DNA of 64,000 nucleotides from Escherichia coli (GCF_003019035.1 NZ_CP027447.1), one strand, 5' to 3'. Counted from the stretch's first letter, positions 26,648 to 64,000 are shown. Numbers and translations are program-made. Notes: generated by a model from the sequence alone, not told the origin.

Positions 26648-27406
26648 TTACTCCGCGCTTACCGTCGTCACCACGCCGCTTTCTGCCACCATTGCGCTGA
26701 TGACCCGCTGGCTGCTGGCGTTACGTACTTTCACCATCTCGCCTTTGCGGCCATTTTTCAGCGCCACGCCGGGCATCGAGGCGGTGATCCCCGCGCTCTG
26801 GTAAACAATCATCACCGGCTCATCGCGTTCGACCAGCACTGGCGAAACCAGCTCTTCTTTGGTGATTGGTCTGCCCGGTTGCAACGCGTGCTTACTGCTG
26901 AAACCAATTGCGTCATCGAGCTCCATCAGCACATCCCGCCGCTGGGCGCTGACGTTGTAGGGCTTCAGCTCCACATCATTTGCCGTGAGCGGCGTATCGC
27001 GGGCAATCAGTGACTTTGCCATCACCACCGGCACCAGAACATCCGGGCGCACCGCGACGTTCATCTGCCAGCTTTGCGGGCAACTGACGGTGAAGTTCAT
27101 CCGGTTAAGGGCGATTTCCGCAGGCGACGTCAGCGTGACGCCGGGTGACGTTGTACAGGGCGCGGCGGTCGCAATCTGCGACGGAATATAGACCTTAAAG
27201 GTGTAGCGATAGTCATGCCATTGCCGCTGCTGCGCCAGCGATTCAATTTTTTGGCTCGCGGCATTCAGTACCTGGGCGTTGATTTGTTCCCGCGCGCTAT
27301 GTTGCACGGGATGGACGGCGGCGTAGCCCGGTAAGGCCAGCGCCAGGAGGAAATAAAACTTCCGCCTGCAAAATTGAAAACTCATAAACCCTTTCTCATC
27401 AGTCAC
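26648..27406 (-). CDS. lfgA: Flagellar P-ring assembly chaperone FlgA homologue
   Basis: 252-aa ORF with signal peptide, divergent from the flgB operon. Confidence 0.8.
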   Translation of the reverse strand: MTDEKGFMSFQFCRRKFYFLLALALPGYAAVHPVQHSAREQINAQVLNAASQKIESLAQQRQWHDYRYTFKVYIPSQIATAAPCTTSPGVTLTSPAEIALNRMNFTVSCPQSWQMNVAVRPDVLVPVVMAKSLIARDTPLTANDVELKPYNVSAQRRDVLMELDDAIGFSSKHALQPGRPITKEELVSPVLVERDEPVMIVYQSAGITASMPGVALKNGRKGEMVKVRNASSQRVISAMVAESGVVTTVSAE

Positions 27407-27414
27407 TTAAAAAT

Positions 27415-27430
27415 TGGCACAGCGATTGCA
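27415..27430 (+). promoter_or_regulatory. Sigma54 (-24/-12) promoter upstream of lfgB
   Basis: TGGCAC-AGCGA-TTGCA, exact match to TGGCAC-N5-TTGCW. Confidence 0.7.
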
Positions 27431-27466
27431 TAGCGTATGCGGATTGAAGCAGGAGTGACGCAGGAA

Positions 27467-27802
27467 ATGGGGATCAGTTTTCAGCAGGCATTGGGAGTAC
27501 ATCCGCAGGCAGTGAAGTTACGTCTTGAGAGGACCGAGCTACTGACTGCGAATCTGGCGAATGTCGATACGCCAAATTTCAAGGCTAAAGATATTGATTT
27601 TGCCAGGGAGATGCAACGGGCAAATAACGCGGCGGTGGATGTCCAGTACCGCGTGCCGATGCAGCCGTCAGAAGATGGCAACACCGTGGAACTGAACAGC
27701 GAACAGGCACGGTTTTCACAAAATAGTATGGATTATCAAAGCAGTCTGACCTTTCTGAATCTGCAAATCAGCGGCATCAGAGAGGCCATTGAAGGGAAAT
27801 AA
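27467..27802 (+). CDS. lfgB: Flagellar basal-body rod protein FlgB homologue
   Basis: ...LLTANLANVDTPNFKAKDIDF... rod-protein N-terminal motif; start set downstream of the predicted sigma54 transcription start (ORF track 27437). Confidence 0.8.
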   Translation: MGISFQQALGVHPQAVKLRLERTELLTANLANVDTPNFKAKDIDFAREMQRANNAAVDVQYRVPMQPSEDGNTVELNSEQARFSQNSMDYQSSLTFLNLQISGIREAIEGK

Positions 27803-30174: not shown

Positions 30175-30911
30175 TGGATCGCTTGATTTATACCGCCCTG
30201 AGCGGGGCTTCTCAGACGTTGTATGAGCAGCAGATTAGCGCCAACAACCTGGCGAACGTCAACACCAACGGTTTTCGCGCCGATATGGCAATGGCGACCA
30301 ATGACAAGGTGAAAGGCGGCGGCTTCGACACTCGCTATATGGCGCAGGAAGGGGCCAGCGGCGTGAACGACAGCACGGGTGCGGCGGAGAAAACCGAACG
30401 CCCGCTGGACGTGGCGATTCAGGGCGCGGGTTACATTGCGGTGCAGGATAAAAACGGCAACGAAGTCTATACCCGCAACGGCAACATTCAGCAGGACGAC
30501 CAGGGGCAACTGACCATCGACGGCAATCTGGTGCTGGGGGATAACGGGCCGATCATTCTGCCGCCGAACGCTATTGCTTCGTTTGGCAGCGACGGCACGC
30601 TGTCGGTGACGCCCGATGACGGCGACGTGACCGCGACGATGGATATCGACCGCCTGAAGCTGGTGGATATTCCGGTTGCTAACCTGGCGAAAAATCCTGA
30701 AGGGATGCTGATAACGGCGGATGGCGTTCCGGCCCAGCGCGATGAAAACATCAAAGTCAGCGGCGGTTTTCTCGAAGGCAGCAACGTCTCGGCGGTGAGC
30801 GAAATGATGTCGTCCATCGCCATGAATCGCCAGTTTGAAGCGCAGATCAAGATGATGAAAACCGCCGAAGATATCAGCGACGCGGGCAACCGCTTATTGC
30901 GCGGCTCGTAA
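30174..30911 (+). CDS. lfgF: Flagellar basal-body rod protein FlgF homologue
   Basis: 245-aa rod-family ORF. Confidence 0.85.
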   Translation: MDRLIYTALSGASQTLYEQQISANNLANVNTNGFRADMAMATNDKVKGGGFDTRYMAQEGASGVNDSTGAAEKTERPLDVAIQGAGYIAVQDKNGNEVYTRNGNIQQDDQGQLTIDGNLVLGDNGPIILPPNAIASFGSDGTLSVTPDDGDVTATMDIDRLKLVDIPVANLAKNPEGMLITADGVPAQRDENIKVSGGFLEGSNVSAVSEMMSSIAMNRQFEAQIKMMKTAEDISDAGNRLLRGS

Positions 30912-30921
30912 CCGCACATCG

Positions 30922-30957
30922 TAGGCCGGATAAGGCGTTCACGCCGCATCCGGCAAC
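30922..30957. repeat. REP (repetitive extragenic palindromic) element
   Basis: GTAGGCCGGATAAGGCGTTCACGCCGCATCCGGCAA. Confidence 0.8.
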
Positions 30958-30989
30958 TGCGGCCCAAAAATAACACGGAATTTACCACC

Positions 30990-31775
30990 ATGAACGCAGC
31001 ACTATGGATCAGCAAAACCGGCCTCTCGGCGCAGGATGCTGAAATGAGCGCGATTGCCAACAACATCGCCAACGTTAACACCACCGGCTTCAAGCGCGAT
31101 CGGGTGATGTTTCAGGATCTGTTCTACCAGACCCAGGAAGCGCCGGGCGCGATGCTCGACCAGAACAACATCATGCCGACCGGGCTGCAATTCGGGAGCG
31201 GCGTACGCATTGTCGGTACCCAGAAAACCTTCACCGAAGGCAACGTTGAGACCACCGACAACGCGATGAATGTCGCCATTATGGGGCAGGGATTTTTGCA
31301 GGTGCAAAAGGCCAACGGCGATATCGCCTATACCCGCGATGGCAACTTACAGGTGAACGCCGACGGCGTACTGACCAACTCGCAGGGCTTGCCGTTGCAG
31401 CCGGAAATCGACGTTCCGGCGGGGGCGACCAACGTTGCGTTTGGTGAGGACGGCACGGTGACGGCGATCTTACCCGGCGACAGCGATGTGACCGAGTTAG
31501 GGCAACTGACACTGGTGAACTTCGCTAACCCGGCGGGGCTCTCCGCCGAGGGCGACAACCTGTATCTGGAAACCGCTGCCAGCGGTCAGCCGACCGAAGG
31601 CGTACCGGGCGAAGATGGGCTTGGCACCTTGCAGGATAACGCGCTGGAAGGATCGAACGTGGATATCGTCAACGAGATGGTGGCGATGATTACGGTGCAA
31701 CGCGCGTACGAGATGAACGCCAAAATGGTCTCGGCGGCAGACGATATGTTGCAGTACATCAGTCAGACGCTGTAA
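30990..31775 (+). CDS. lfgG: Flagellar distal rod protein FlgG homologue
   Basis: 261-aa rod-family ORF. Confidence 0.9.
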   Translation: MNAALWISKTGLSAQDAEMSAIANNIANVNTTGFKRDRVMFQDLFYQTQEAPGAMLDQNNIMPTGLQFGSGVRIVGTQKTFTEGNVETTDNAMNVAIMGQGFLQVQKANGDIAYTRDGNLQVNADGVLTNSQGLPLQPEIDVPAGATNVAFGEDGTVTAILPGDSDVTELGQLTLVNFANPAGLSAEGDNLYLETAASGQPTEGVPGEDGLGTLQDNALEGSNVDIVNEMVAMITVQRAYEMNAKMVSAADDMLQYISQTL

Positions 31776-46398: not shown

Positions 46399-47454
46399 AT
46401 GCGTAAAATCATTCATGTGGATATGGACTGCTTTTTCGCAGCGGTGGAGATGCGCGACAATCCTGCCCTGCGCGATATCCCTATTGCTATTGGCGGCAGC
46501 CGCGAACGTCGGGGGGTGATCAGCACCGCCAATTATCCCGCGCGTAAATTTGGCGTACGTAGCGCTATGCCGACAGGGATGGCACTCAAATTATGCCCAC
46601 ATCTCACGCTGCTTCCAGGGCGCTTTGACGCCTACAAAGAAGCCTCAAATCATATCCGCGAAATTTTCTCGCGCTATACCTCGCGCATTGAACCGTTATC
46701 ACTGGATGAAGCCTATCTCGACGTCACCGATAGTGTGCATTGCCACGGTTCTGCGACCCTCATCGCCAAGGAAATCCGTCAGACGATCTTTAACGAGCTG
46801 CAACTGACGGCATCTGCGGGCGTTGCGCCGGTAAAGTTTCTCGCCAAAATTGCTTCCGACATGAATAAACCCAACGGTCAGTTTGTGATTACGCCGGCAG
46901 AAGTTCCGGCATTTCTGCAAACCTTACCGCTGGCAAAAATTCCCGGCGTCGGCAAAGTCTCGGCGGCAAAACTGGAAGCGATGGGGCTGCGGACCTGCGG
47001 TGATGTGCAAAAGTGTGATCTGGTGACTCTGCTCAAACGTTTTGGCAAATTTGGCCGCATTTTGTGGGAGCGTAGTCAGGGGATTGACGAGCGCGACGTT
47101 AACAGTGAACGGTTGCGAAAATCCGTCGGCGTGGAACGCACGATGGCGGAAGATATTCATCACTGGTCTGAATGTGAAGCGATTATCGAGCGGCTGTATC
47201 CTGAACTTGAACGCCGTCTGGCAAAGGTAAAACCTGATTTACTGATTGCTCGCCAGGGGGTGAAATTAAAGTTTGATGATTTTCAGCAAACCACTCAGGA
47301 GCACGTCTGGCCGCGGCTGAATAAAGCTGATCTAATCGCCACCGCGCGTAAAACCTGGGATGAACGTCGCGGCGGGCGCGGTGTGCGTCTGGTGGGGCTG
47401 CATGTGACGTTACTTGACCCTCAAATGGAAAGACAACTGGTGCTGGGATTATGA
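46399..47454 (+). CDS. dinB: DNA polymerase IV (Y-family translesion polymerase)
   Basis: 351-aa ORF beginning [22 protein letters not shown]... Confidence 0.95.
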
Positions 47455-47903
47455 ATAACATACAAATAAGAAACTATCAGCCTTGCGATTTTCAGCAACT
47501 ATGCGCTATTTTCATTAGAGCAGTTACGATGACCGCCAGTCAGCACTATTCTCCACAGCAAATTGCCGCCTGGGCGCAGATTGACGAATCTCGCTGGAAA
47601 GATAAACTCGCGAAATCACAAGTGCGGGTTGCAGTCATTAATGCACAACCGGTTGGTTTTATTTCCCGCATTGAACATTATATCGATATGTTATTTGTTG
47701 ACCCGGAATACACCCGCCGTGGGGTTGCCAGCGCTTTGTTAAAACCTTTGATTAAGTCTGAATCCGAACTTACGGTGGACGCCAGCATAACCGCAAAGCC
47801 CTTTTTTGAACGTTATGGTTTTCAGACAGTTAAGCAGCAGCGCGTTGAATGCCGGGGAGCGTGGTTTATTAATTTTTATATGCGTTATAAACCGCAACAT
47901 TAA
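47451..47903 (+). CDS. yafP: GNAT family N-acetyltransferase
   Basis: 150-aa ORF overlapping the dinB stop by 4 nt. Confidence 0.85.
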
Positions 47904-48081: not shown

Positions 48082-49233
48082 ATGGAATGGTACATGGGCA
48101 AATATATTCGTCCCTTATCCGATGCGGTATTTACCATCGCATCTGATGACCTGTGGATCGAGAGTTTAGCGATCCAACAATTACACACCACGGCAAATTT
48201 ACCCAACATGCAACGCGTAGTAGGGATGCCAGATTTACATCCCGGACGCGGCTATCCGATTGGCGCAGCGTTCTTCTCCGTAGGCCGTTTTTACCCGGCA
48301 CTGGTCGGCAATGATATCGGCTGCGGTATGGCGCTATGGCAAACAGATATTTTCGCGCGCAAATACAACGCCGATAAGTTTGAAAAGCGATTATCTGCGC
48401 TGGATGACGTTGCTGAAGAAAGCTGGCTGGAGGAAAACCTGCCGTCAGCGTTAGCACAGCATCCGTGGCGCAGCTCGCTGGGTTCCATCGGTGGCGGAAA
48501 CCACTTCGCAGAACTGCAACAAGTTGATCAAATTATCGACGCTGAACTGTTTGCACTGACAGGTCTGGATGCGCAGCATCTGCAACTGCTGGTTCATAGC
48601 GGCTCGAGGGGGCTGGGGCAGTCTATTTTACAGCGGCATATTGCCTCGTTTTCGCATCATGGTTTGCCTGAAGGCAGTGACGACGCGCTACGGTATATTG
48701 CGGAACATGACGATGCGCTGGCGTTTGCGCGTATTAATCGCCAGATGATCGCTTTGCGCATAATGCAACAGGTTAAGGCCACCGGAAGTCCTGTTCTGGA
48801 TGTGGCGCATAACTTTGTTAGCGCCTGTCAAATCGGCGATCAACAGGGCTGGTTGCATCGTAAAGGTGCCACGCCGGATGACAACGGTCTGGTGATTATT
48901 CCCGGTTCACGCGGTGATTACTCCTGGCTGGTTAAACCTGTTGCGAACGAAAAAACACTCCACTCGCTGGCGCATGGGGCAGGGCGTAAATGGGGGCGCA
49001 CCGAGTGTAAAGGGCGTCTGGCAGCGAAATACACGGCGACGCAACTCTCGCGTACTGAACTTGGCAGTCGGGTAATTTGTCGCGATAAACAACTCATCTT
49101 TGAAGAAGCGCCACAAGCCTATAAATCGGCTGAAAGCGTGGTGCAATGTCTGGTGCAGGCCGGTTTAATTATTCCTGTCGCGCGGCTGCGTCCGGTGCTA
49201 ACGCTCAAAAACAATGGAGGGAAAAAAGGATGA
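48082..49233 (+). CDS. rtcB2: RtcB-family RNA ligase paralogue (full-length counterpart of the K-12 ykfJ pseudogene)
   Basis: RtcB motifs (...[19 protein letters not shown]...[11 protein letters not shown]...); stop overlaps the prfH start. Confidence 0.85.
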
Positions 49234-49844
49234 TCTTGCTACAACTCTCCTCAGCTCAGGGGCCGGAAGAATGTTGCCTGGCAGTGAAAAAGGCGCTGGA
49301 CAGGTTGATTAAAGAAGCTACCCGACAAGACGTCGCGGTAACGGTGCTGGAAACAGAAACGGGTCGCTACTCTGACACACTGCGTTCGGCGCTGATTTCT
49401 CTGGATGGCGATAACGCATGGGCTCTAAGCGAAAGCTGGTGTGGCACTATCCAGTGGATTTGTCCGAGTCCGTATCGGCCTCATCATGGGCGCAAAAACT
49501 GGTTTCTGGGCATTGGGCGTTTTACCGCTGATGAGCAGGAACAATCCGACGCGATCCGTTATGAGACGCTGCGTTCGTCGGGGCCGGGCGGTCAACATGT
49601 CAATAAAACCGACTCGGCGGTACGCGCCACGCATCTGGCATCCGGTATTAGCGTGAAGGTTCAGTCAGAGCGCAGTCAGCATGCTAACAAACGGCTGGCG
49701 CGATTACTGATTGCCTGGAAGCTGGAACAACAGCAACAGGAAAATAGCGCGGCGCTGAAATCGCAGCGGCGAATGTTCCATCATCAAATTGAACGTGGCA
49801 ATCCGCGACGGATATTTACCGGGATGGCTTTTGTTGCTGTGTAA
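49230..49844 (+). CDS. prfH: Peptide chain release factor homologue PrfH (GGQ-domain protein)
   Basis: 204-aa ORF with GGQ motif (...[17 protein letters not shown]...); translationally coupled to rtcB2. Confidence 0.85.
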
Positions 49845-49905
49845 TTGAGGAATGTCTCCCGCCGTTTTCTATATGAAAGCGGCGGGCAAAACGAAAGGAA
49901 TCGTC

Positions 49906-50415
49906 ATGTTTATCGGTCATCTTCCGGCTGGTTATTTAATAACTTGTACTTTAGTGAAACGCTTGCCACTGATTGCTCGTCATGCGCGCTGGGCGATGGT
50001 TATTGGCTTAGTTGGGGCCATTGCGCCCGATTTTGATCTTTTCTGGTGCTATCTGGTTGATAACGGGCAACGCCATCATCATCTTTACCCGTCTCATTGG
50101 CCATTATTATGGTTTGCTCTGCTGGCGGCGACATTAGTTTGGGCCGCAATTGCGAAGAATAAACTTCCGGCGTGGTTGGGCGTGGTGTTTTGCCTGAATG
50201 GTATCGTGCATTTATTACTCGATACGCTGGTCGGTGATATCTGGTGGTTGATGCCTTTCGTTAACCAACCCTTTGCACTCTTTCATATTACGGCGGTACA
50301 TCATCCGTGGTGGCTCAATTTTTTATTACACTGGTCGTTTTTACTTGAACTGGCATTAGTGGTTGCCGCCATTGCCATGTGGTACAGGCGTAATGCCAAA
50401 ATGGTAAATGCATGA
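49906..50415 (+). CDS. Membrane-bound metal-dependent hydrolase family protein (YdjM/DUF457-like)
   Basis: 170-aa polytopic ORF beginning MFIGHLPAGYL... with His-rich segments; AAAGGAA RBS. Confidence 0.65.
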   Translation: MFIGHLPAGYLITCTLVKRLPLIARHARWAMVIGLVGAIAPDFDLFWCYLVDNGQRHHHLYPSHWPLLWFALLAATLVWAAIAKNKLPAWLGVVFCLNGIVHLLLDTLVGDIWWLMPFVNQPFALFHITAVHHPWWLNFLLHWSFLLELALVVAAIAMWYRRNAKMVNA

Positions 50416-50690
50416 AAAAATAATTCTGACTTTAAGCGGCGTAACATGTTTCCTGGGGAAATTCTCCCGTGGCTAAGTATGTTTTCCTGACTTTGCCCCA
50501 GGCTCTGAACATATAAAAATTCTGCTTTTCACCCTTAAGTTCTTTCACGGATTCCAGCGCAAAACTTTCTTTGGTGATCAGAAACTCCCCCCATGAAATA
50601 TGGTCGCAGCTATATAAATATGCGACCTTTTCATGAGTTTCATAATGTTTTGTTATTTCGATATAGATAGCCATTGGCTTCAAACAGAAG

Positions 50691-50710
50691 TCCACGCCCG
50701 CAGGCGTGGA
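50691..50710 (-). terminator. Probable intrinsic terminator of pepD
   Basis: TCCACGCC-CGCA-GGCGTGGA hairpin 12 bp after the pepD stop, followed on the minus strand by a U-rich tract. Confidence 0.55.
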
Positions 50711-50721
50711 CATTATCGTAA

Positions 50722-58557: not shown

Positions 58558-58633
58558 GCCGATATAGCTCAGTTGGTAGAGCAGCGCATTCGTAATGCGA
58601 AGGTCGTAGGTTCGACTCCTATTATCGGCACCA
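58558..58633 (+). tRNA. thrW: tRNA-Thr (anticodon CGU); phage attachment target
   Basis: GCCGATATAGCTCAGTTGGTAGAGCAGCGCATTCGTAATGCGAAGGTCGTAGGTTCGACTCCTATTATCGGCACCA; cloverleaf with CGT anticodon and encoded CCA end. Confidence 0.9.
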
Positions 58634-58647
58634 TTAAAATCAATAAG

Positions 58648-59811
58648 TTACACATCATTAGTACCTTCCTTATTTTTTGACTGGGACAAATTTGGGACCG
58701 ATGGGTTCAGGATCGAGTCTATTTGCCGTGCGTGTTCGGTAAGGTGATTAGGTGCAAGGTGAGCATATCGACGAACCATTTCGATAGACTCCCAGCCTCC
58801 CATTTCCTGTAACACTGACAACGGGACTCCGGCTTGAACCAGCCAACTTGCCCAGGTGTGTCTCAAGTCGTGAAATCTGAAATCATCAATACCAGCCCGT
58901 CTCAGCGCCGCTTTCCAGGCTGTGTTTGCGTCATACCGCATCTTCCTTACTGTTGGCGCTTTCGTTCCGTCTGGTTTGGTACAGCTTTCCTTGTACACAA
59001 ATACCCAACGGTGATGATTCCCGATTTGTTTTTTCAATACGCGACATGCAGTATCATTCAGCGCAACGCCAATTGCGCGGTTTGATTTACTCTCTTCCGG
59101 GTTTATCCATGCCACCCGGCGCTGCATATCTATTTGTTGCCATTCAAGGTTGATGATGTTCGAGCGTCTTAAGCCTGTTGCCAGTGCAAATTCAACAACA
59201 GACTTTAATGGCTCCGGACATTCATCAATCAGCCTTTGTGCTTCATGGGGTTCCAGCCAGCGGATCCGTTTATTCTTTGGTTGAGGCACTTTAATAATTG
59301 GTGCCTTATCCAGCATTTTCCATTCACGCTCTGCGGCTCTTAGTAGGGCCTTTATAAATGAAAGATGCGTAGCCTTCGTTGCAACGGACGCTGGTTTTGG
59401 CGTGTATTCTGGAACAGGTTTCCCTTTTTTTCTGCATGCTTCTGCCCTGAGTTTCCAGTTTTCCTCATGACGCCGGTTCGTCATTTTCTGCATTGCTGAA
59501 TAAATTTTTGATTCAGTAATGTCTCTTAGTTGCATTCCTGCGAAATGTTGAAGCCAGAATCCGATCCGGCTTTTGTCATCGTCCAGTGATTTTTTATGTG
59601 CTTTCTCTTCAAGCCACCTGACACACGCTTCCTCGAACGTTATATCAGGTATTTCACCAAGTTTGCTGACCCGCCATGCTTCGGCCTTTAGCTTGTCATG
59701 GAGTTCTGTCGCCTGCCTTTTGTCCTTTGTTCCAAGAGACTGTTTAAATCTTTTACCGTTCGGCAATGTGAAACTGGCGTACCATATTTCACCTCTGCGG
59801 AAGAGTGACAT
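58648..59811 (-). CDS. int: Phage tyrosine integrase (P22-type)
   Basis: 387-aa [27 protein letters not shown]... with catalytic ...HDLRHTWAS... and ...VRRYAHL... motifs. Confidence 0.9.
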
Positions 59812-60038
59812 TTTCTTTCCTCTGTTATGCCATCACCCGCGCTCACCTGGACAGTATGCAGCGGAGACTGAAGAGCCGCAATGCAGGCTTGTCGTGTTGT
59901 GAGGTAAGGAGATTTATTCTTAGTGGGATCTTTGCGTGTTGCCTGAAGACGCCCTGTGCGTATCCAGTTAATAGCAGTCGGTCTGGATATCTTGAGAAAA
60001 TGACAGGCCTCATCGAGTGTGAGGCTGTATGGCTCCAT
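59688..60038 (-). CDS. xis: Excisionase-like DNA-binding protein (116 aa), 3' end overlapping the int start
   Basis: HTH-like N-terminus ...[26 protein letters not shown]...; GAGGTG RBS; TAATG stop-start overlap with the upstream gene. Confidence 0.55.
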
Positions 60039-60382
60039 TATTTCACCTCTTGCTGTGACATTGTTGAAAAATGGATACCAGCTCGTTGCTGCCAGACGAT
60101 CCAACCGAGAGTCATATCCCATGCCATGTATTCGTTATCGCCGTTTTTTGCTCTCCGACGATCGACTGTTTTACCGAAACGCTTTTCCATAAATAATTCA
60201 TAGGCTACGCGTTCATCTGGCTCAACTTCCAGAGATGCCAGTGCAATCCGTGCCAGTTCTAAATCATTTTCAAGCTCAGCGCGAATCTCAGCGAATGCAC
60301 TCTGTGTTAAGGCGAACTCAATGCTCTGCACTTTATTCCGTGCGCGCTCAAGCAGTGCATGGTAGTTAATTTCGGTTGTCAT
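60038..60382 (-). CDS. Phage hypothetical protein (114 aa)
   Basis: ORF translationally coupled to neighbours on both sides. Confidence 0.6.
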   Translation of the reverse strand: MTTEINYHALLERARNKVQSIEFALTQSAFAEIRAELENDLELARIALASLEVEPDERVAYELFMEKRFGKTVDRRRAKNGDNEYMAWDMTLGWIVWQQRAGIHFSTMSQQEVK

Positions 60383-61257
60383 ACCCCTACCTCTTCGAAT
60401 TCCAATTCCAATTGATCACCCCAGATTTCACATGACTCTGAACACGAACCGGTATCGAATCGCCTGGCCTGTACCATCGCCTGATACAAATTTCTGTAGT
60501 CGCTGTTGGCAGACATTCTGGCAATTCCGTCAAGCGTCAGGTGACCACGGTACATAATGTCTTTACCTGTTCTGCGATGACCATCCCTGACGTGTTTGCC
60601 TGTAACCAGCTCATTAAAAACTCGCATCAGACCTGGTTCGTCTTTACATGCAAGCCCCAGCTTTTGCGTTGACTTTTTGATGCAGAAAACACAGTTCCCG
60701 AGATGCTCCGGGATTTGCAAATCAAAAGGTTGTTTTCGCCACCACCGGATAACATCCGACTTATCAAAATCTGACAGCTCGGCAAGATACCGGACGCCCG
60801 ATTTCGGTTTCAGCCTACGGGGTTCGTCTGCACGAATACCCAGCCATGTGATGTAATTACCTCGCCCGAAATGGTTATCGCAGTATTTCGTGAAAGGGAT
60901 GAGTTTTAGCCTGTCAGTACAGAACGCGCCGCCGATGTATGGCGTGCCGTACTTTTTAACCATGTCCATAAACGGTTTAAGCACCGGCATTCGTGTCTGA
61001 ATATCCTTTGGCTCCCATTCTGTATAACCATTTGGCTGCCCAAGCTCAGGATTTATATCGACCTGTAACACAGTTAGTGGTATGTCCCAGAACTTTACAA
61101 CCTCCCGGATAAAGCGGTATGTCAGCGGATGTTCGCAACCGGTATCCATAAAGATGTAGCAGACGTTATTGCCAGCCTTTCTTTGTTCTTCCATCAGGTG
61201 AACAAGATATGCGGATGTTCTCCCGCCAGAAAAACTAACTACATGAGTTATGCACAT
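60379..61257 (-). CDS. Phosphoadenosine phosphosulfate reductase-like (PP-loop ATPase superfamily) phage protein
   Basis: SGGRTS PP-loop motif near the N-terminus; start set at MCITHVVSFSGG (ORF track extends upstream). Confidence 0.7.
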   Translation of the reverse strand: MCITHVVSFSGGRTSAYLVHLMEEQRKAGNNVCYIFMDTGCEHPLTYRFIREVVKFWDIPLTVLQVDINPELGQPNGYTEWEPKDIQTRMPVLKPFMDMVKKYGTPYIGGAFCTDRLKLIPFTKYCDNHFGRGNYITWLGIRADEPRRLKPKSGVRYLAELSDFDKSDVIRWWRKQPFDLQIPEHLGNCVFCIKKSTQKLGLACKDEPGLMRVFNELVTGKHVRDGHRRTGKDIMYRGHLTLDGIARMSANSDYRNLYQAMVQARRFDTGSCSESCEIWGDQLELEFEEVGV

Positions 61258-61784
61258 TTGCGTAATTCCGATAACTCGTTGAAGCGTTCCATAAACATCC
61301 CGTAGGCATGGCCCGGTGCCAGTGGAATAACTTTGAACATCTCTGTTGCCGGGATACCTTCCAGTACAGGCCATAAAGAGCCATCATCAAGCCCGAGATC
61401 ACGGCGTTCGGTTGCCAGCATAATGAGATCGGCATATTTCACTGGCGTGCTCATAACAGGAGGTAACCCGTATTTCTCACGGATTACTGCATCTATTTTT
61501 TCTTCCATCCGTTTATAGTCAGGAAGAAGGCGTTTCAGTGGTGCGGGGATGTCCTGGCAATACGCTTCTGTTGCATCATGCATTAACGCTTCAAAAGCAA
61601 ATTCCTGCGGCACCAGCTGGCTGCAAAGCACCGCATGTTGGGCGACACTGTAGAAGTGAGAAAGATGACCGGCAAAGCGGCAGATATTTGAAAGGGAAAC
61701 CGCGATATCGTTAATCACGATGTCGTCTTTATTTATCTTGTCATAATAAAAATGCTTCCCGGAAAAAGTTTTAATAAATGACAT
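61248..61784 (-). CDS. HD-domain phosphohydrolase (YfdR-like 5'-deoxynucleotidase family)
   Basis: 178-aa ORF with HD motif context (...VAQHAVLCSQL...ALMHDATEAYCQDIP...); GGAG RBS. Confidence 0.7.
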   Translation of the reverse strand: MSFIKTFSGKHFYYDKINKDDIVINDIAVSLSNICRFAGHLSHFYSVAQHAVLCSQLVPQEFAFEALMHDATEAYCQDIPAPLKRLLPDYKRMEEKIDAVIREKYGLPPVMSTPVKYADLIMLATERRDLGLDDGSLWPVLEGIPATEMFKVIPLAPGHAYGMFMERFNELSELRKCA

Positions 61785-61911
61785 TTTGTTCTCCACGTAT
61801 ATGCGCTGCACCGCGCTGAATTCTGGTAAAAAGAATCCCTCACCATCCGGCGATTATTGAGTAAATTACGTTTCCATAAATGCCCCCGCAGGGGCATTTG
61901 CAGTAATGAAA

Positions 61912-62736
61912 TCAGGCGGTGAAAGTACCAATAAAGGTTTCTACTTTGCTGTCCTTGAATTTCTCAACAAGCAGATCACGAAATTCGTTAGCCATTTCTT
62001 CCTGCACCGCCTCCAGCTGAATAATGCGCAGAACCAGTACAGGACGATCTCCAGTGATAATACTGAGGCGTAATTTAAACGGACGTTCTTTCAGACCTTC
62101 AAACGGAACGCATTTAAATTCAAATGCCACTGGCATAATGTCTTTGGTCTTCGCTTCGACAGACTCCATCAGGGAGCGTTTGCCGCTGAAGTCATTATCT
62201 TCAAAATCAGCGGTCTGGTTTGCTTCAATCGTGATTTTACGGACAGCCGCAGCCGCTTTTGTTGCCTGAATAGCGTCACCATTAGCATCAAAGCCCACAA
62301 GATAGTCGGCCCAGTCTTCAATCCATTCTGCCAGTGACTTCTGGGAGTTACGCTCGCCGTTAACAGACAACAGAGCAGAGAACGGTGCTGTCTTTTTCAG
62401 TTTGAGTGTGGCGGTGTTATCTGCGTGACCTGGTTCATCAATAGTACCCAGGTTAAGCACACTGACGGCACGCATATTATCAGCATCGATAAAGCAGCGG
62501 GTGCCTTCATCTGCAAGATCTTTAGAATAACGGGTAAAGTCATCGATGCTGGCAGTGGAAAGCGCACCACGGAAACGGAAGCGATTTAAATTAAATTTTT
62601 CCAGATCATGAATGCGGAAATTCTCAGGCAATGCCACAGCATCGGCACCAATCTTACTGATAATTTCATTAACACCCTGAGCAGAAATAAGGGCATGGAT
62701 TTGATTAATTGCGGTTGCGTCTAAGTTCTGAGACAT
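61912..62736 (-). CDS. Phage-associated hypothetical protein (274 aa), resembles prophage CPS-53 YfdQ as recalled
   Basis: Long ORF in the leftward early operon; family assignment from memory only. Confidence 0.6.
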
Positions 62737-62801
62737 AATAAGTCCTCACTATATAAAGATATTCAGTGATGAGATAAATAATCAGTTAATTAAAAACGAT
62801 A

Positions 62802-63164
62802 TTAACGACCTGCTGCGCGGAGTTTTCCGTCAGGTTCACCGGCAAGAGTCAGTAACTGTCCCTGGTCTTCCTGCAGAATAGTCAGGCGACCACCGCGATT
62901 GACATACATCGGCGTTTCGGTGGTGTCTTCTTCGGAAATTTTCCCGCGGTTAGTCGGGCGAACATATGAGAGTTTGTGTTTGATTTTCACACGGTTCTCA
63001 TCAAATGGTTCGATTTCCAGGTTGAGTGAGACCTTACCTTTGGTTTTCGTGTTCATCACACCGGAAGCGACTTCACTGAGAACTGCGCCGATTTTGGTTT
63101 CAAATACGCCGCCGTCCAGCTCCCCGATAAATGCCTGCACATCAGTACTGCGTTCGCTAGCCAT
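62802..63164 (-). CDS. Phage hypothetical protein (120 aa)
   Basis: ORF with AGGAG RBS 8 nt upstream of the ATG at 63164; longer ORF-track version discarded. Confidence 0.6.
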   Translation of the reverse strand: MASERSTDVQAFIGELDGGVFETKIGAVLSEVASGVMNTKTKGKVSLNLEIEPFDENRVKIKHKLSYVRPTNRGKISEEDTTETPMYVNRGGRLTILQEDQGQLLTLAGEPDGKLRAAGR

Positions 63165-63212
63165 TTTGCTGCTCCTCATCATATCGACCCTGCAAGGCCG
63201 ATTAGTTTCTCC

Positions 63213-63301
63213 ACAAAACAGAGAAGAACACCTGCGGTGGCAGCCGCCCGGATGGATTGGGTTATGAGCCCGTCGTCCGGTGATGCTCTTCTCTGTTTTG
63301 T
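63213..63301. repeat. 15-bp perfect inverted repeat (ACAAAACAGAGAAGA / TCTTCTCTGTTTTGT) enclosing a 59-bp GC-rich spacer
   Basis: Arms at 63213-63227 and 63287-63301; a second hairpin GGTACCAGC-N17-GCTGGTACC follows at 63311-63345. Confidence 0.7.
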
Positions 63302-63601
63302 AAAAAGGACGGTACCAGCCGGAAGCAAGGGTACAAGCTGGTACCGCCAGGACTACACACAGCATAAAGTTGTGGTGCCGGGTGCCTCCCGGTGCCTGGC
63401 GAAGGTTGCACACCAGGCGGGTGGGTATCCACAGAAGGTCGACTGTCAGCCTCAACCTTAACCCGCGTGCGCTGAGCCGCATTCACCACAACGCTAAGGA
63501 TTCTCTCTGGTTGAAAATACTTAGCTGTTATGTGCCTGTCTTTTCACCACTTCAGGCTCGGTGGTATCCTTTTAAGCCCGTATACATAAAAGGAAAATCA
63601 A

Positions 63602-63847
63602 ATGACTTTTGATGAAAAAGAACTTGATAATGCAATTAATAAAATCATCGTAACGTCGCTCTTTTCCTGTCTCAGCGACACTCAGCAGAAACAGTTCTAC
63701 GAATCGGCTTTCAACATGATCGAGCGTTGTTGTTTCTGCGATGCCGACGAGTTACCTGAAAAAATCAGGAAACAGTTGGCTGATGCTCTTCGAGTGCGAC
63801 TTTCTGACCAATTTTCTGAAATGTGCTCTCCGAATTTGGACAAATAG
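63602..63847 (+). CDS. Phage hypothetical protein (81 aa)
   Basis: ORF with AAGGA RBS, rightward from the divergent intergenic region. Confidence 0.5.
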   Translation: MTFDEKELDNAINKIIVTSLFSCLSDTQQKQFYESAFNMIERCCFCDADELPEKIRKQLADALRVRLSDQFSEMCSPNLDK

Positions 63848-64000
63848 AAAAAGGCCATTTCCATTCAGGGTCTGATGGAAATACTTCAGCCTGTTCCAAA
63901 GCACGGCGTAAAGAGAACACAACTCCAGCCATAATCTGATGTTTCCCATTGGTCCAGCTATCGCCGCTCTGATCTACAGGGGCGGCTATGTCGTATGACC

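Follow-up and report, generated by a model that had tools for sequence, protein, structure and literature searches.

The ninC gene of phage lambda has been an orphan ever since the lambda genome was sequenced. As befits an accessory gene, it can be dispensed with for plaque formation on E. coli K-12 (PMC10695390). The PAPS-reductase domain of DndC, SspD and BrxP is a pyrophosphatase essential for phosphorothioate synthesis, and known phosphorothioate synthesis requires an NTPase partner (PMC12914056). When genes p0018 and p0019 of Vibrio phage 44E38.1 were moved into a sensitive phage, 1e11 PFU/ml were obtained on a Dnd+ host; since the swap brought two genes in at the cost of four others, two of them encoding methylases (bioRxiv 10.1101/2021.05.05.442762), the anti-Dnd effect is not assignable to the PAPS domain alone. 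YfdR of E. coli K-12 is an HD protein and a weak dNMP phosphatase (5'-deoxynucleotidase) with low nucleotide affinity, which binds to Phe46 in domain I of DnaA, in competition with DiaA and DnaB (PMC4776307).

Relatives of ninC and yfdR lie side by side in the DNA analysed here, a stretch of 64,000 nucleotides from E. coli (NZ_CP027447.1), referred to below as the window. A preliminary description had presented this end of it as a P22-like prophage at thrW, whose PP-loop (SGGRTS) and HD enzymes would act as a pair in anti-defence or host defence. All the features it listed are present where it had placed them (Table 1). Past the tRNA-Thr(CGT) gene, a leftward chain of overlapping genes runs through int, xis, p114, the PP-loop gene and the HD gene, followed by yfdQ and yfdP. 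The xis/int overlap is 124 nt, as it is in P22, p114 shares 4 nt (ATGA) with ninC and 1 nt with xis, and the end of yfdR overlaps the start of ninC by the 10 nt ATGTGCATAA, read directly in the sequence as the preliminary description had it. The gene boundaries are those of the RefSeq annotation in near-identical genomes. The genes from int to yfdQ are long open reading frames with database matches reaching down to E=1e-90 to 1e-120, so that chance is not at issue; yfdP gives no match in a Pfam search. Four frames of 331, 187, 144 and 226 aa from a mechanical list were set aside as real genes extended upstream, the 226-aa one being yfdP. The window reaches 5.4 kb into the prophage on its attL side and ends at 64000, so that the virion genes and the attR end, where SfV-type serotype-converting phages have the O-antigen modification genes gtrABV, fall beyond it; in the closest complete genome the prophage is only a remnant, cut by IS5.

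Table 1. Features of the thrW-proximal prophage arm (window coordinates).
Feature	Coordinates	Strand	Evidence
thrW, tRNA-Thr(CGT)	58558..58633	+	ARAGORN; Rfam tRNA, 71.8 bits
int, P22-type tyrosine integrase, 387 aa	58648..59811	-	PF00589 E=3e-48; 348/387 identical to P22 Int
xis, P22-type excisionase, 116 aa	59688..60038	-	101/116 identical to P22 Xis; phrog_2907 E=1e-50; HTH_17
p114, chimeric ORF, 114 aa	60038..60382	-	phrog_660 E=3.5e-24
ninC-like gene, PP-loop protein, 292 aa	60379..61257	-	PF01507 E=2e-8; phrog_424 E=1.1e-90
yfdR, HD protein, 178 aa	61248..61784	-	175/178 identical to K-12 YfdR; phrog_318 E=2.6e-109
yfdQ, DUF2303, 274 aa	61912..62736	-	PF10065 E=2e-92; 272/274 identical to K-12 YfdQ
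yfdP, 120 aa	62802..63164	-	WEM25 and K-12 have an annotated yfdP at the corresponding place; related loci matched by tblastn
Mosaic cassette, 1,002 bp	60248..61249	not assigned	blastn against SfV, K-12 CPS-53, Stx phage, lambda

The integration module is of the P22 type. Int is 90% identical to P22 Int, a likeness that had been noted for its N-terminus and in fact extends over the full length, and the excisionase, also described earlier as P22-like, is 87% identical to P22 Xis. The 46-nt att core, formed by the 3' part of thrW (from about 58588), is identical in the attP sites of P22 and SfV in a three-way alignment. The blastn match to P22 is confined to 58588-60038 (att core, int and xis), at 80% nucleotide identity; past 60038 the P22 homology in the visible prophage consists of two matches of 35-39 nt, and neither eaC nor other ea genes of P22 occur in this part. 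SfV homology begins at the same position, 58588, and proceeds in the same gene order at 98.3-98.4% identity over 58588-60247 and 61250-64000. In complete relatives the head genes are of the HK97 type and the terminase is of the P27 family, and a relative whose ninC is 100% identical combines a P27-family terminase with an HK97-family protease and capsid. Judged by nucleotide identity and synteny, this end of the window contains the attL arm of a lambdoid prophage of the SfV type, put into thrW by a P22-type Int/Xis. The insertion at thrW by such a module is thereby borne out, whereas the label of a P22-like prophage fits int, xis and the att core only, the remaining visible prophage being 98% SfV. 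Assignment to the P22-like phages (Lederbergvirus) is likewise not supported: int, xis and attP fit, but P22-type early-left genes are absent from the visible prophage. One relative of the prophage carries a KwaB-like gene after Q.

The leftward operon is a variant of the yfdP-yfdQ-yfdR-yfdS-yfdT block known from SfV (orf31-orf28 for yfdQ to yfdT) and from the cryptic K-12 prophage CPS-53. Gene order is kept, and yfdP, yfdQ and yfdR are 98-99% identical (YfdQ 99% and YfdR 98% at the protein level against K-12). It differs from both in that yfdS (DUF551) is missing, the 5' part of yfdT is swapped and ninC occupies the yfdS slot. By blastn, homology to SfV breaks off at 60247/60248 and resumes at 61249/61250; the cassette between these breakpoints carries ninC and the first ~45 codons of p114, and displaces 450 bp of SfV comprising orf29 (yfdS-like) and the 5' end of orf28 (yfdT-like). 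Consequently p114 consists of ~45 new N-terminal residues and a YfdT-like C-terminal part, which is 81-84% identical to K-12 YfdT (tblastn). The stretch in common with an Stx phage is limited to 60370-61259 (89.6%), i.e., the ninC reading frame itself. These boundaries point to a single recombination event, in which a single-gene ninC cassette would have been exchanged for yfdS and the 5' end of yfdT; ninC adjoins yfdR because the 1,002-bp cassette took their place. Both putative enzymes of the preliminary description are known lambdoid-phage accessory genes, namely a relocated lambda-type ninC and yfdR.

The close contact of the two genes is the starting point for the view that YfdR and NinC form a joint module acting on nucleotides or nucleic-acid modifications as one anti-defence or defence unit, in which, for example, the PP-loop enzyme would adenylate an intermediate nucleotide that the HD phosphohydrolase either provides or takes away. 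The 10-nt overlap implies translational coupling, nucleotides are substrates of both enzyme classes, and the joined unit recurs in 281 of the 5,426 complete E. coli genomes surveyed as well as in 58 of 80 close IMG/VR loci. However, yfdR overlaps yfdS by an equal 10 nt in K-12 and SfV, and the overlap therefore belongs to the 3' end of yfdR and not to the yfdR-ninC pair. The distribution is also unfavourable. In the same 5,426 genomes, yfdR occupies 3,882 places in 2,947 genomes and the ninC allele of the window 460 places in 422 genomes, 72 of these places being plasmid-borne, so that only ~7% of yfdR copies are accompanied by this ninC and ~93% are not. None of 66 loci carrying NinC of the lambda-type or P0102-type clades has YfdR within 5 kb; where flanking matches are available, these copies mostly follow ninB in the nin region, the typical site of the family, which the copy in the window does not occupy. 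Lambda, Stx phages and P1-like plasmids have NinC without YfdR. Among the 80 close IMG/VR loci, an unrelated 147-aa reading frame takes the place upstream of ninC in 12, and the downstream neighbour varies as well. The homology breakpoint, furthermore, falls exactly on the gene boundary. On this distribution yfdR and ninC are adjacent through mosaicism in one sub-clade and do not constitute a conserved two-enzyme module: the pairing proposed earlier goes back to a single cassette swap. A joint module is accordingly considered unlikely, even if the tight translational coupling and the 281 genomes leave room for some functional interplay.

The PP-loop protein, which begins MCITHVVSFSGGRTS, aligns with lambda NinC without gaps at 79% identity (226/285 residues) and matches the NinC family of PHROG as listed in Table 1; by these comparisons it is an orthologue of lambda NinC within the PAPS-reductase superfamily. 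Across 31 homologues, down to 51% identity, SxSGGRxS, DTGxEH and six cysteines (C113, C126, C189, C192, C272 and C276 in the numbering of the window protein) are invariant, and the conserved C-terminal motif reads GSCSESCE. PADLOC profiles match NinC at E=1.3e-14 for SspD, 2.8e-4 for BrxP and 5e-3 for DndC; the SspD alignment is limited to NinC residues 5-152, the PP-loop half (profile positions 2-125 of 277), and the DndC matches comprise no significant stretch of their own. From its sequence and predicted structure, NinC would be an ATP pyrophosphatase of the PP-loop type whose cysteines probably ligate a metal or an Fe-S cluster, bearing in mind that the model has pLDDT <50 from residue 266 onward and thus places the C-terminal CxxxC at low confidence.

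Phage proteins of this kind are often labelled auxiliary metabolic "PAPS reductases" in virome studies. On that view NinC would be a true CysH-like PAPS/APS reductase by which the phage raises assimilatory sulfate reduction during infection, a reading consistent with the PF01507 match, with the APS and PAPS reductases found as best PDB matches by Foldseek (E about 4e-5) and with the PHROG category "moron, auxiliary metabolic gene and host takeover". The structural matches, however, have TM-scores <0.5, the PDB sequence match spans only about residues 4-70 (E about 3e-3), and with the NCBIfam CysH model NF002537 NinC reaches 20.5 bits, far below the cut-off of 154. The PP-loop of NinC is the canonical SFSGGRTS, whereas in reductases the aligned position is degenerate (SFSGAE or SSSFGIQ). 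The C-terminal catalytic ECGLH, the established motif of CysH/APS reductases, occurs nowhere in the 292-aa translation, and the fusion partners of the family are DNA methyltransferases, not sulfur-metabolism genes. NinC resembles SspD, BrxP and DndC more than CysH in these comparisons, and a reductase function is highly improbable.

The gene fusions point toward DNA. Of nine long NinC-family representatives, six carry a fused N6-adenine DNA methyltransferase; both domain orders occur, and two Pfam families of the enzyme (PF05869 and PF02086) are represented. In 14 of the 66 nin-region loci a Dam gene lies within 5 kb of NinC, in most cases directly upstream of it; next to the copy in the window, a methylase gene is absent. 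The p0018 protein of Vibrio phage 44E38.1 (P0076) shares 55% identity with NinC along 283 aa, retains all Cys motifs and continues into a Dam domain. From this association with methyltransferases and from the anti-Dnd Vibrio-phage segment, a DNA target and an escape from restriction can be inferred. NinC most likely acts on DNA, with adenylate activation followed by sulfur insertion in an SspD/DndC/BrxP-like chemistry, the product of which would be a phosphorothioate or related mark. The window, in which ninC has yfdR, p114, xis and int for neighbours, encodes neither a DndD/SspC-type NTPase nor a nickase or cysteine desulfurase, and the related loci examined contain no DndD/SspC/BrxC-type NTPase gene; NinC may work alone, with a phage Dam-type methylase or through host Dnd/Ssp partners. 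Replicating phage DNA would thereby evade phosphorothioate-based restriction, and NinC is probably a DNA-directed counter-defence enzyme. PP-loop chemistry might instead be directed at RNA (tRNA thiolation or lysidine-type reactions) or at a small-molecule cofactor, retuning translation or metabolism during infection. This would be at odds with the recurrent fusion and adjacency to DNA adenine methyltransferases, with a Pfam search of NinC that returned no RNA-binding domain, and with the sole known phenotype of a homologue, which concerns a DNA-based restriction system; it is regarded as unlikely.

The activities described for K-12 YfdR, dNMP phosphatase and DnaA binding, are assumed to carry over to the 98%-identical copy in the window, which has its HD dyad at H69-D70 and matches the HD protein of PDB 2gz4 at E=5.5e-13. 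During lytic growth YfdR would then hold back the initiation of host replication. Translational coupling links all these genes in a single operon that precedes xis-int, a position from which expression would be expected upon induction or infection and not in the lysogen. A promoter scan found no promoter-like site on the strand of the operon genes; the three sites detected, against 8.1 in shuffled sequence, are weak evidence either way. Expression of this kind runs counter to a function as host-defence cargo of the prophage, whereby superinfecting phages would be kept out either through depletion of deoxynucleotides by YfdR or through a mark placed on host DNA by NinC. dNTP-depleting HD enzymes are known defences, NinC is similar to the component responsible for modification in Ssp, Dnd and BREX-4, and defence cargo does occur in prophages of this type, as exemplified by the KwaB-like gene mentioned above. 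Nevertheless, PADLOC gives no match for YfdR, YfdQ or p114, a restriction partner is absent nearby, and the nucleotide affinity of YfdR is low (PMC4776307), which makes host defence improbable, more so than a joint module or an RNA target. Of the roles proposed earlier, anti-defence is retained for the PP-loop gene as a reasonable candidate function, on account of the full-length, 55%-identical Dam fusion on the two-gene anti-Dnd Vibrio segment; for the HD gene, the weak dNMP phosphatase that binds DnaA, neither anti-defence nor defence is supported. Neither protein matches a well-characterised housekeeping function, NinC being an orphan and YfdR only partly characterised. Of the two genes, only ninC has a credible, if putative, link to the evasion of host DNA-phosphorothioate defences.

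Collectively, an SfV-type prophage that acquired ninC by a cassette swap, with NinC as a presumed evader of phosphorothioate-based defence, is assigned a probability of roughly 0.6. More tentatively, and with the balance somewhat against it, the whole NinC family, including lambda ninC, might be a widespread single-gene DNA-modification enzyme directed against Dnd, Ssp and type 4 BREX systems, often together with a Dam-type methylase; the phosphorothioate-type or related mark on phage DNA would then be made through adenylation by the PP-loop and a metal or Fe-S site bound by cysteines. If so, ninC beside yfdR would represent a portable counter-defence cassette, hopping among the nin region, the early-left operon and P1-like plasmids.

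Among known systems, P22 shares with this locus int, xis, the attP core and the thrW integration site, but not the rest of the visible prophage or the HK97-type heads of complete relatives, whereas SfV corresponds to it in nucleotide identity and synteny of the int-proximal early-left region on both sides of the cassette. Lambda NinC (290 aa) has the same length, PP-loop and six conserved cysteines and is likewise a dispensable accessory gene; its neighbours are ninB and ninD in the rightward nin region, while the copy in the window stands in a leftward operon between yfdR and the yfdT-derived frame, next to xis-int. With CysH and APS reductase NinC has the Pfam domain in common, yet the catalytic motif and the intact state of the PP-loop set them apart. 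SspD, DndC and BrxP are related to it through the homologous PP-loop domain, the conserved cysteines and, for SspD, a similar size (profile of 277 positions), but NinC aligns with them by its N-terminal half only and is a phage-borne single gene without a linked NTPase, nickase or desulfurase. The Vibrio protein p0018 differs from the window NinC in its C-terminal Dam domain, and phage 44E38.1, a podovirus of V. crassostreae, in host and phage type; p0018 nonetheless contains the complete NinC module and is the sole family member with a phenotype.

The window is a stretch of E. coli chromosome in which proB, proA and tRNA-Thr(CGT) are followed by a leftward gene block, whose boundaries match the RefSeq calls in near-identical genomes. 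The genes of this block are chained by overlaps of 124 nt (xis/int), 1 nt (p114, a 114-aa ORF, and xis), 4 nt (ATGA; the PP-loop gene, here ninC, and p114) and 10 nt (ATGTGCATAA; the HD gene and ninC). Gene calls and sequence bear out every observed detail of the adjacent, 10-nt-overlapping PP-loop and HD genes that the preliminary description had placed after int/xis at thrW. Searched against Rfam, the entire window gives thrW as its sole match. The promoter scan returns fewer sites than shuffled sequences and none on the coding strand of the leftward genes, so that no separate ninC promoter can be proposed; since these genes also lie upstream of xis-int, expression of the leftward operon after induction or infection is likely.

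Features at thrW in the window and two genes of the related prophage of E. coli ZYS9073 (own coordinates)
Feature	Position	Direction
tRNA-Thr(CGT) thrW	58558-58633	
int	58648-59811	leftward
xis	59688-60038	leftward
p114, 114-aa ORF	60038-60382	leftward
PAPS-reductase-family (PP-loop) protein, 292 aa	60379-61257	leftward
HD protein, 178 aa	61248-61784	leftward
yfdQ (DUF2303)	61912-62736	leftward
yfdP	62802-63164	leftward
ZYS9073 (L287) methyltransferase	27052-27705	
ZYS9073 (L287) KwaB-like gene	30615-31499	

The window covers the first 5.4 kb of the prophage, which is an SfV-type lambdoid element. Int shares 90% identity with P22 Int across all 387 residues, Xis shares 87% with P22 Xis across 116 residues, and the 46-nt attachment core within thrW is identical to the attP of P22 and of SfV. 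Since P22 homology ends at 60038 and the visible arm matches Shigella phage SfV at 98% identity throughout, except at 60248-61249, the earlier designation as a P22-like prophage fits just the integration module. In a relative, a complete prophage, the PP-loop gene is 100% identical and occupies the same site; its small terminase is of the P27 family, and its protease and capsid are HK97-family. The closest complete genome, WEM25 (99.2%), retains the prophage only as an IS5-cut remnant. Beyond yfdP, positions 63165-64000 show 98% SfV identity, and the WEM25 equivalent consists of two hypothetical genes, one frameshifted and one small. An 81-aa plus-strand ORF (63602-63847), accompanied by a promoter-like site (63602-63631), is unmatched in Pfam.

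Elsewhere in the window, an apparently intact Flag-2 (lateral flagella) cluster occupies 8533-46328 and comprises homologues of FlhA, FliF, FliI, FlgE, FlgK, FliD and MotA together with an 847-aa glycosyltransferase; 35.3 kb (10236-45557) are missing from WEM25, which keeps only flhA' and lafU stubs, as in K-12-like strains. At 46399-47903, dinB runs straight into yafP with a 4-nt overlap, and the yafN-yafO toxin-antitoxin pair that lies between them in WEM25 is absent from the window and from ZYS9073. A full-length rtcB-family RNA ligase gene (383 aa) and prfH (RF-1 domain), truncated pseudogenes in WEM25, are found at 48082-50415; after them comes an extra YdjM-family membrane-protein ORF (49852-50415), inside an 887-bp stretch (49833-50718) unmatched in WEM25.

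The PP-loop and HD genes had been proposed to act as a two-enzyme module, and this proposal is not borne out. The difference between the window and both SfV and CPS-53, a cryptic K-12 prophage, is a single cassette of 1,002 bp (60248-61249), which carries ninC and about 45 new p114 codons and stands in for 450 bp with a yfdS-like gene and the 5' end of a yfdT-like gene. The left breakpoint of the cassette lies exactly at the yfdR stop/ninC start, and the yfdR/yfdS overlap in K-12 and SfV consists of the same 10 nt, indicating that the overlap belongs to the end of yfdR, the HD gene. An Stx phage has in common only the ninC ORF itself (60370-61259, 89.6%), located there after an unrelated 147-aa ORF. 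The p114 ORF is a chimera of the cassette swap, its ~45 new N-terminal residues being in frame with a C-terminal section from YfdT that is 81-84% identical to the K-12 protein; the ORF has stayed intact, with translational coupling to both neighbours.

Of 5,426 complete E. coli genomes, 2,947 contain yfdR (3,882 places) and 422 contain this ninC allele (460 places, 72 on plasmids); the joined yfdR-ninC unit is present in 281. About 7% of yfdR copies thus carry this ninC, and about 61% of the copies of this one ninC allele follow yfdR. Upstream of ninC in 80 close IMG/VR loci, a set that was the same with a family-alignment query as with a single-protein query, YfdR is encoded in 58 and the 147-aa ORF in 12, and the downstream neighbour is variable. 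More diverse NinC loci came from queries with the distant family members P0009 and P0102. YfdR lies within 5 kb of NinC in none of 66 loci (26 lambda-type and 40 P0102-type), where the gene typically follows ninB. YfdR is likewise absent from the P1-like plasmid context (Phd/Doc, Ref), in which the ninC neighbours are small hypothetical genes, DUF968 and a metallophosphoesterase. The plasmids with the ninC allele measure ~92-115 kb, and the same allele (~92% nt) is found at 5001-5873 of L286, a 92,972-bp plasmid of E. coli O22:H8 strain 154. Collectively, the cassette, the overlap, the Stx phage and the counts provide four concurring lines of evidence that yfdR and ninC do not form a functional pair, and ninC behaves as a mobile cassette of one gene.

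The HD gene encodes YfdR, with 175 of 178 residues identical to the K-12 CPS-53 protein. It matches PHROG 318, annotated "deoxyribonucleoside 5' monophosphate phosphatase" (E=3e-109), and among solved structures the HD protein Atu1052 is closest. Binding of YfdR to DnaA domain I depends on Phe46 and is in moderate competition with DiaA and DnaB, and over-expression of yfdQRST inhibits initiation at oriC (PMC4776307). Together, yfdP-yfdQ-yfdR and the yfdT-derived p114 are a variant of the yfdQRST block. Interference with DnaA-dependent initiation is the sole known activity of that block (PMC4776307), which fits host takeover in lytic growth rather than defence. PADLOC gives no match for YfdR, YfdQ or p114. 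A nucleotide-depleting defence role was also considered and rejected.

The PP-loop protein is an orthologue of lambda NinC (226 of 285 residues identical, without gaps) and shares 93% identity with those that Stx2a phages encode in their early-left operon. Lambda ninC is not needed for plaque formation on K-12 (PMC10695390), and the literature searches found no paper centred on NinC or its function. The assignment of NinC as a sulfate-assimilation reductase, or sulfur-metabolism auxiliary gene, was rejected on both sequence and fold. In the PDB sequence search, APS/PAPS reductase matches are weak and N-terminal, spanning only about residues 4-70; the curated CysH model gives 20.5 bits against a cut-off of 154, and Foldseek TM-scores are below 0.5. 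The ATP-binding PP-loop is intact, with the canonical SFSGGRTS, where the aligned reductases have SFSGAE or SSSFGIQ. Furthermore, the ECGLH catalytic motif, a hallmark of the CysH/APS reductase family, is absent from the NinC sequence. The last two of the six conserved cysteines fall in the low-confidence tail of the structure model, and any metal site is a putative one.

A NinC profile search of 1.84 billion representatives identified 3,020 members of the family, of which 359 reach E<=1e-30. Fusion to an N6-adenine DNA methyltransferase is observed in six of nine long representatives tested, in both domain orders (P0121, P0130 and P0152 versus P0122 and P0123), and the fused enzymes, in metagenome representatives, belong to two Pfam families, Dam PF05869 and D12 PF02086 (P0128). 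Many other representatives, of ~340 aa, have a ~50-aa insertion near residue 150. Of the 66 nin-region loci, 14 have a Dam gene within 5 kb of NinC, in most cases immediately upstream. Together, the fusions and the nearby Dam genes point to DNA as the NinC substrate. No methylase adjoins the window copy of ninC. In ZYS9073, the rightward operon of the complete relative prophage at thrW includes a phage gene for an N6-adenine methyltransferase (Dam); on the other strand, right behind the Q antiterminator, is a KwaB-like (Kiwa) gene, in what looks like a defence cargo slot.

The p0018 protein of Vibrio phage 44E38.1 (P0076), one of the methyltransferase fusions, is 55% identical to the window NinC across 283 aa, all Cys motifs included. 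Transfer of p0018 and p0019 into a related phage, a swap that brought in two genes and displaced four others, allowed infection of Dnd-carrying V. crassostreae at 1e11 PFU/ml (Piel et al., bioRxiv 10.1101/2021.05.05.442762). A 2026 preprint lists phage PAPS reductases in Aca-regulated operons among candidate anti-defence genes. The anti-defence idea of the preliminary description survives for NinC alone, and not as a two-enzyme module.

The mechanism with the best support on this evidence is one in which NinC would be an ATP-dependent, DNA-directed enzyme for modification or sulfur insertion, or else would mimic host DndC/SspD and plug into host partners. Known phosphorothioate synthesis requires an NTPase partner (PMC12914056), and none is linked to the window ninC. 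NinC would shield replicating phage DNA from phosphorothioate-based restriction. While homology, fold, conserved motifs, fusions and the Vibrio phenotype rest on data, the substrate and product, like the metal site and any activity of lambda-type NinC, are predicted ones.

The locus is an ordinary mosaic of known kinds (SfV-type prophage, P22-type integration module, YfdR and NinC family); hundreds of E. coli genome sequences already hold annotated copies that are identical or nearly so, and the two-enzyme module is a false lead now removed. In the Vibrio phage, the PAPS domain implicated in anti-Dnd activity is a full-length NinC, with the lambda orphan ninC in the same family. In the literature found, no paper joins that domain to lambda NinC, connects the two with the SspD/DndC/BrxP enzymes, or notes the repeated fusion of the NinC family with DNA adenine methylases. 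This is a lead open to test and not a discovery, and it provides a concrete, cheap hypothesis for a classic orphan gene of the best-studied phage. Should the hypothesis prove true, the presence of NinC would be a common sign that an enterobacterial or Vibrio phage counters phosphorothioate-based immunity, useful for host-range prediction and therapeutic phage design. Lambda NinC is now linked with the PP-loop enzymes of the SspD/DndC/BrxP type and with the anti-Dnd-implicated Vibrio PAPS-Dam fusion, a link for which the repeated fusions to two DNA adenine methyltransferase families provide independent support.
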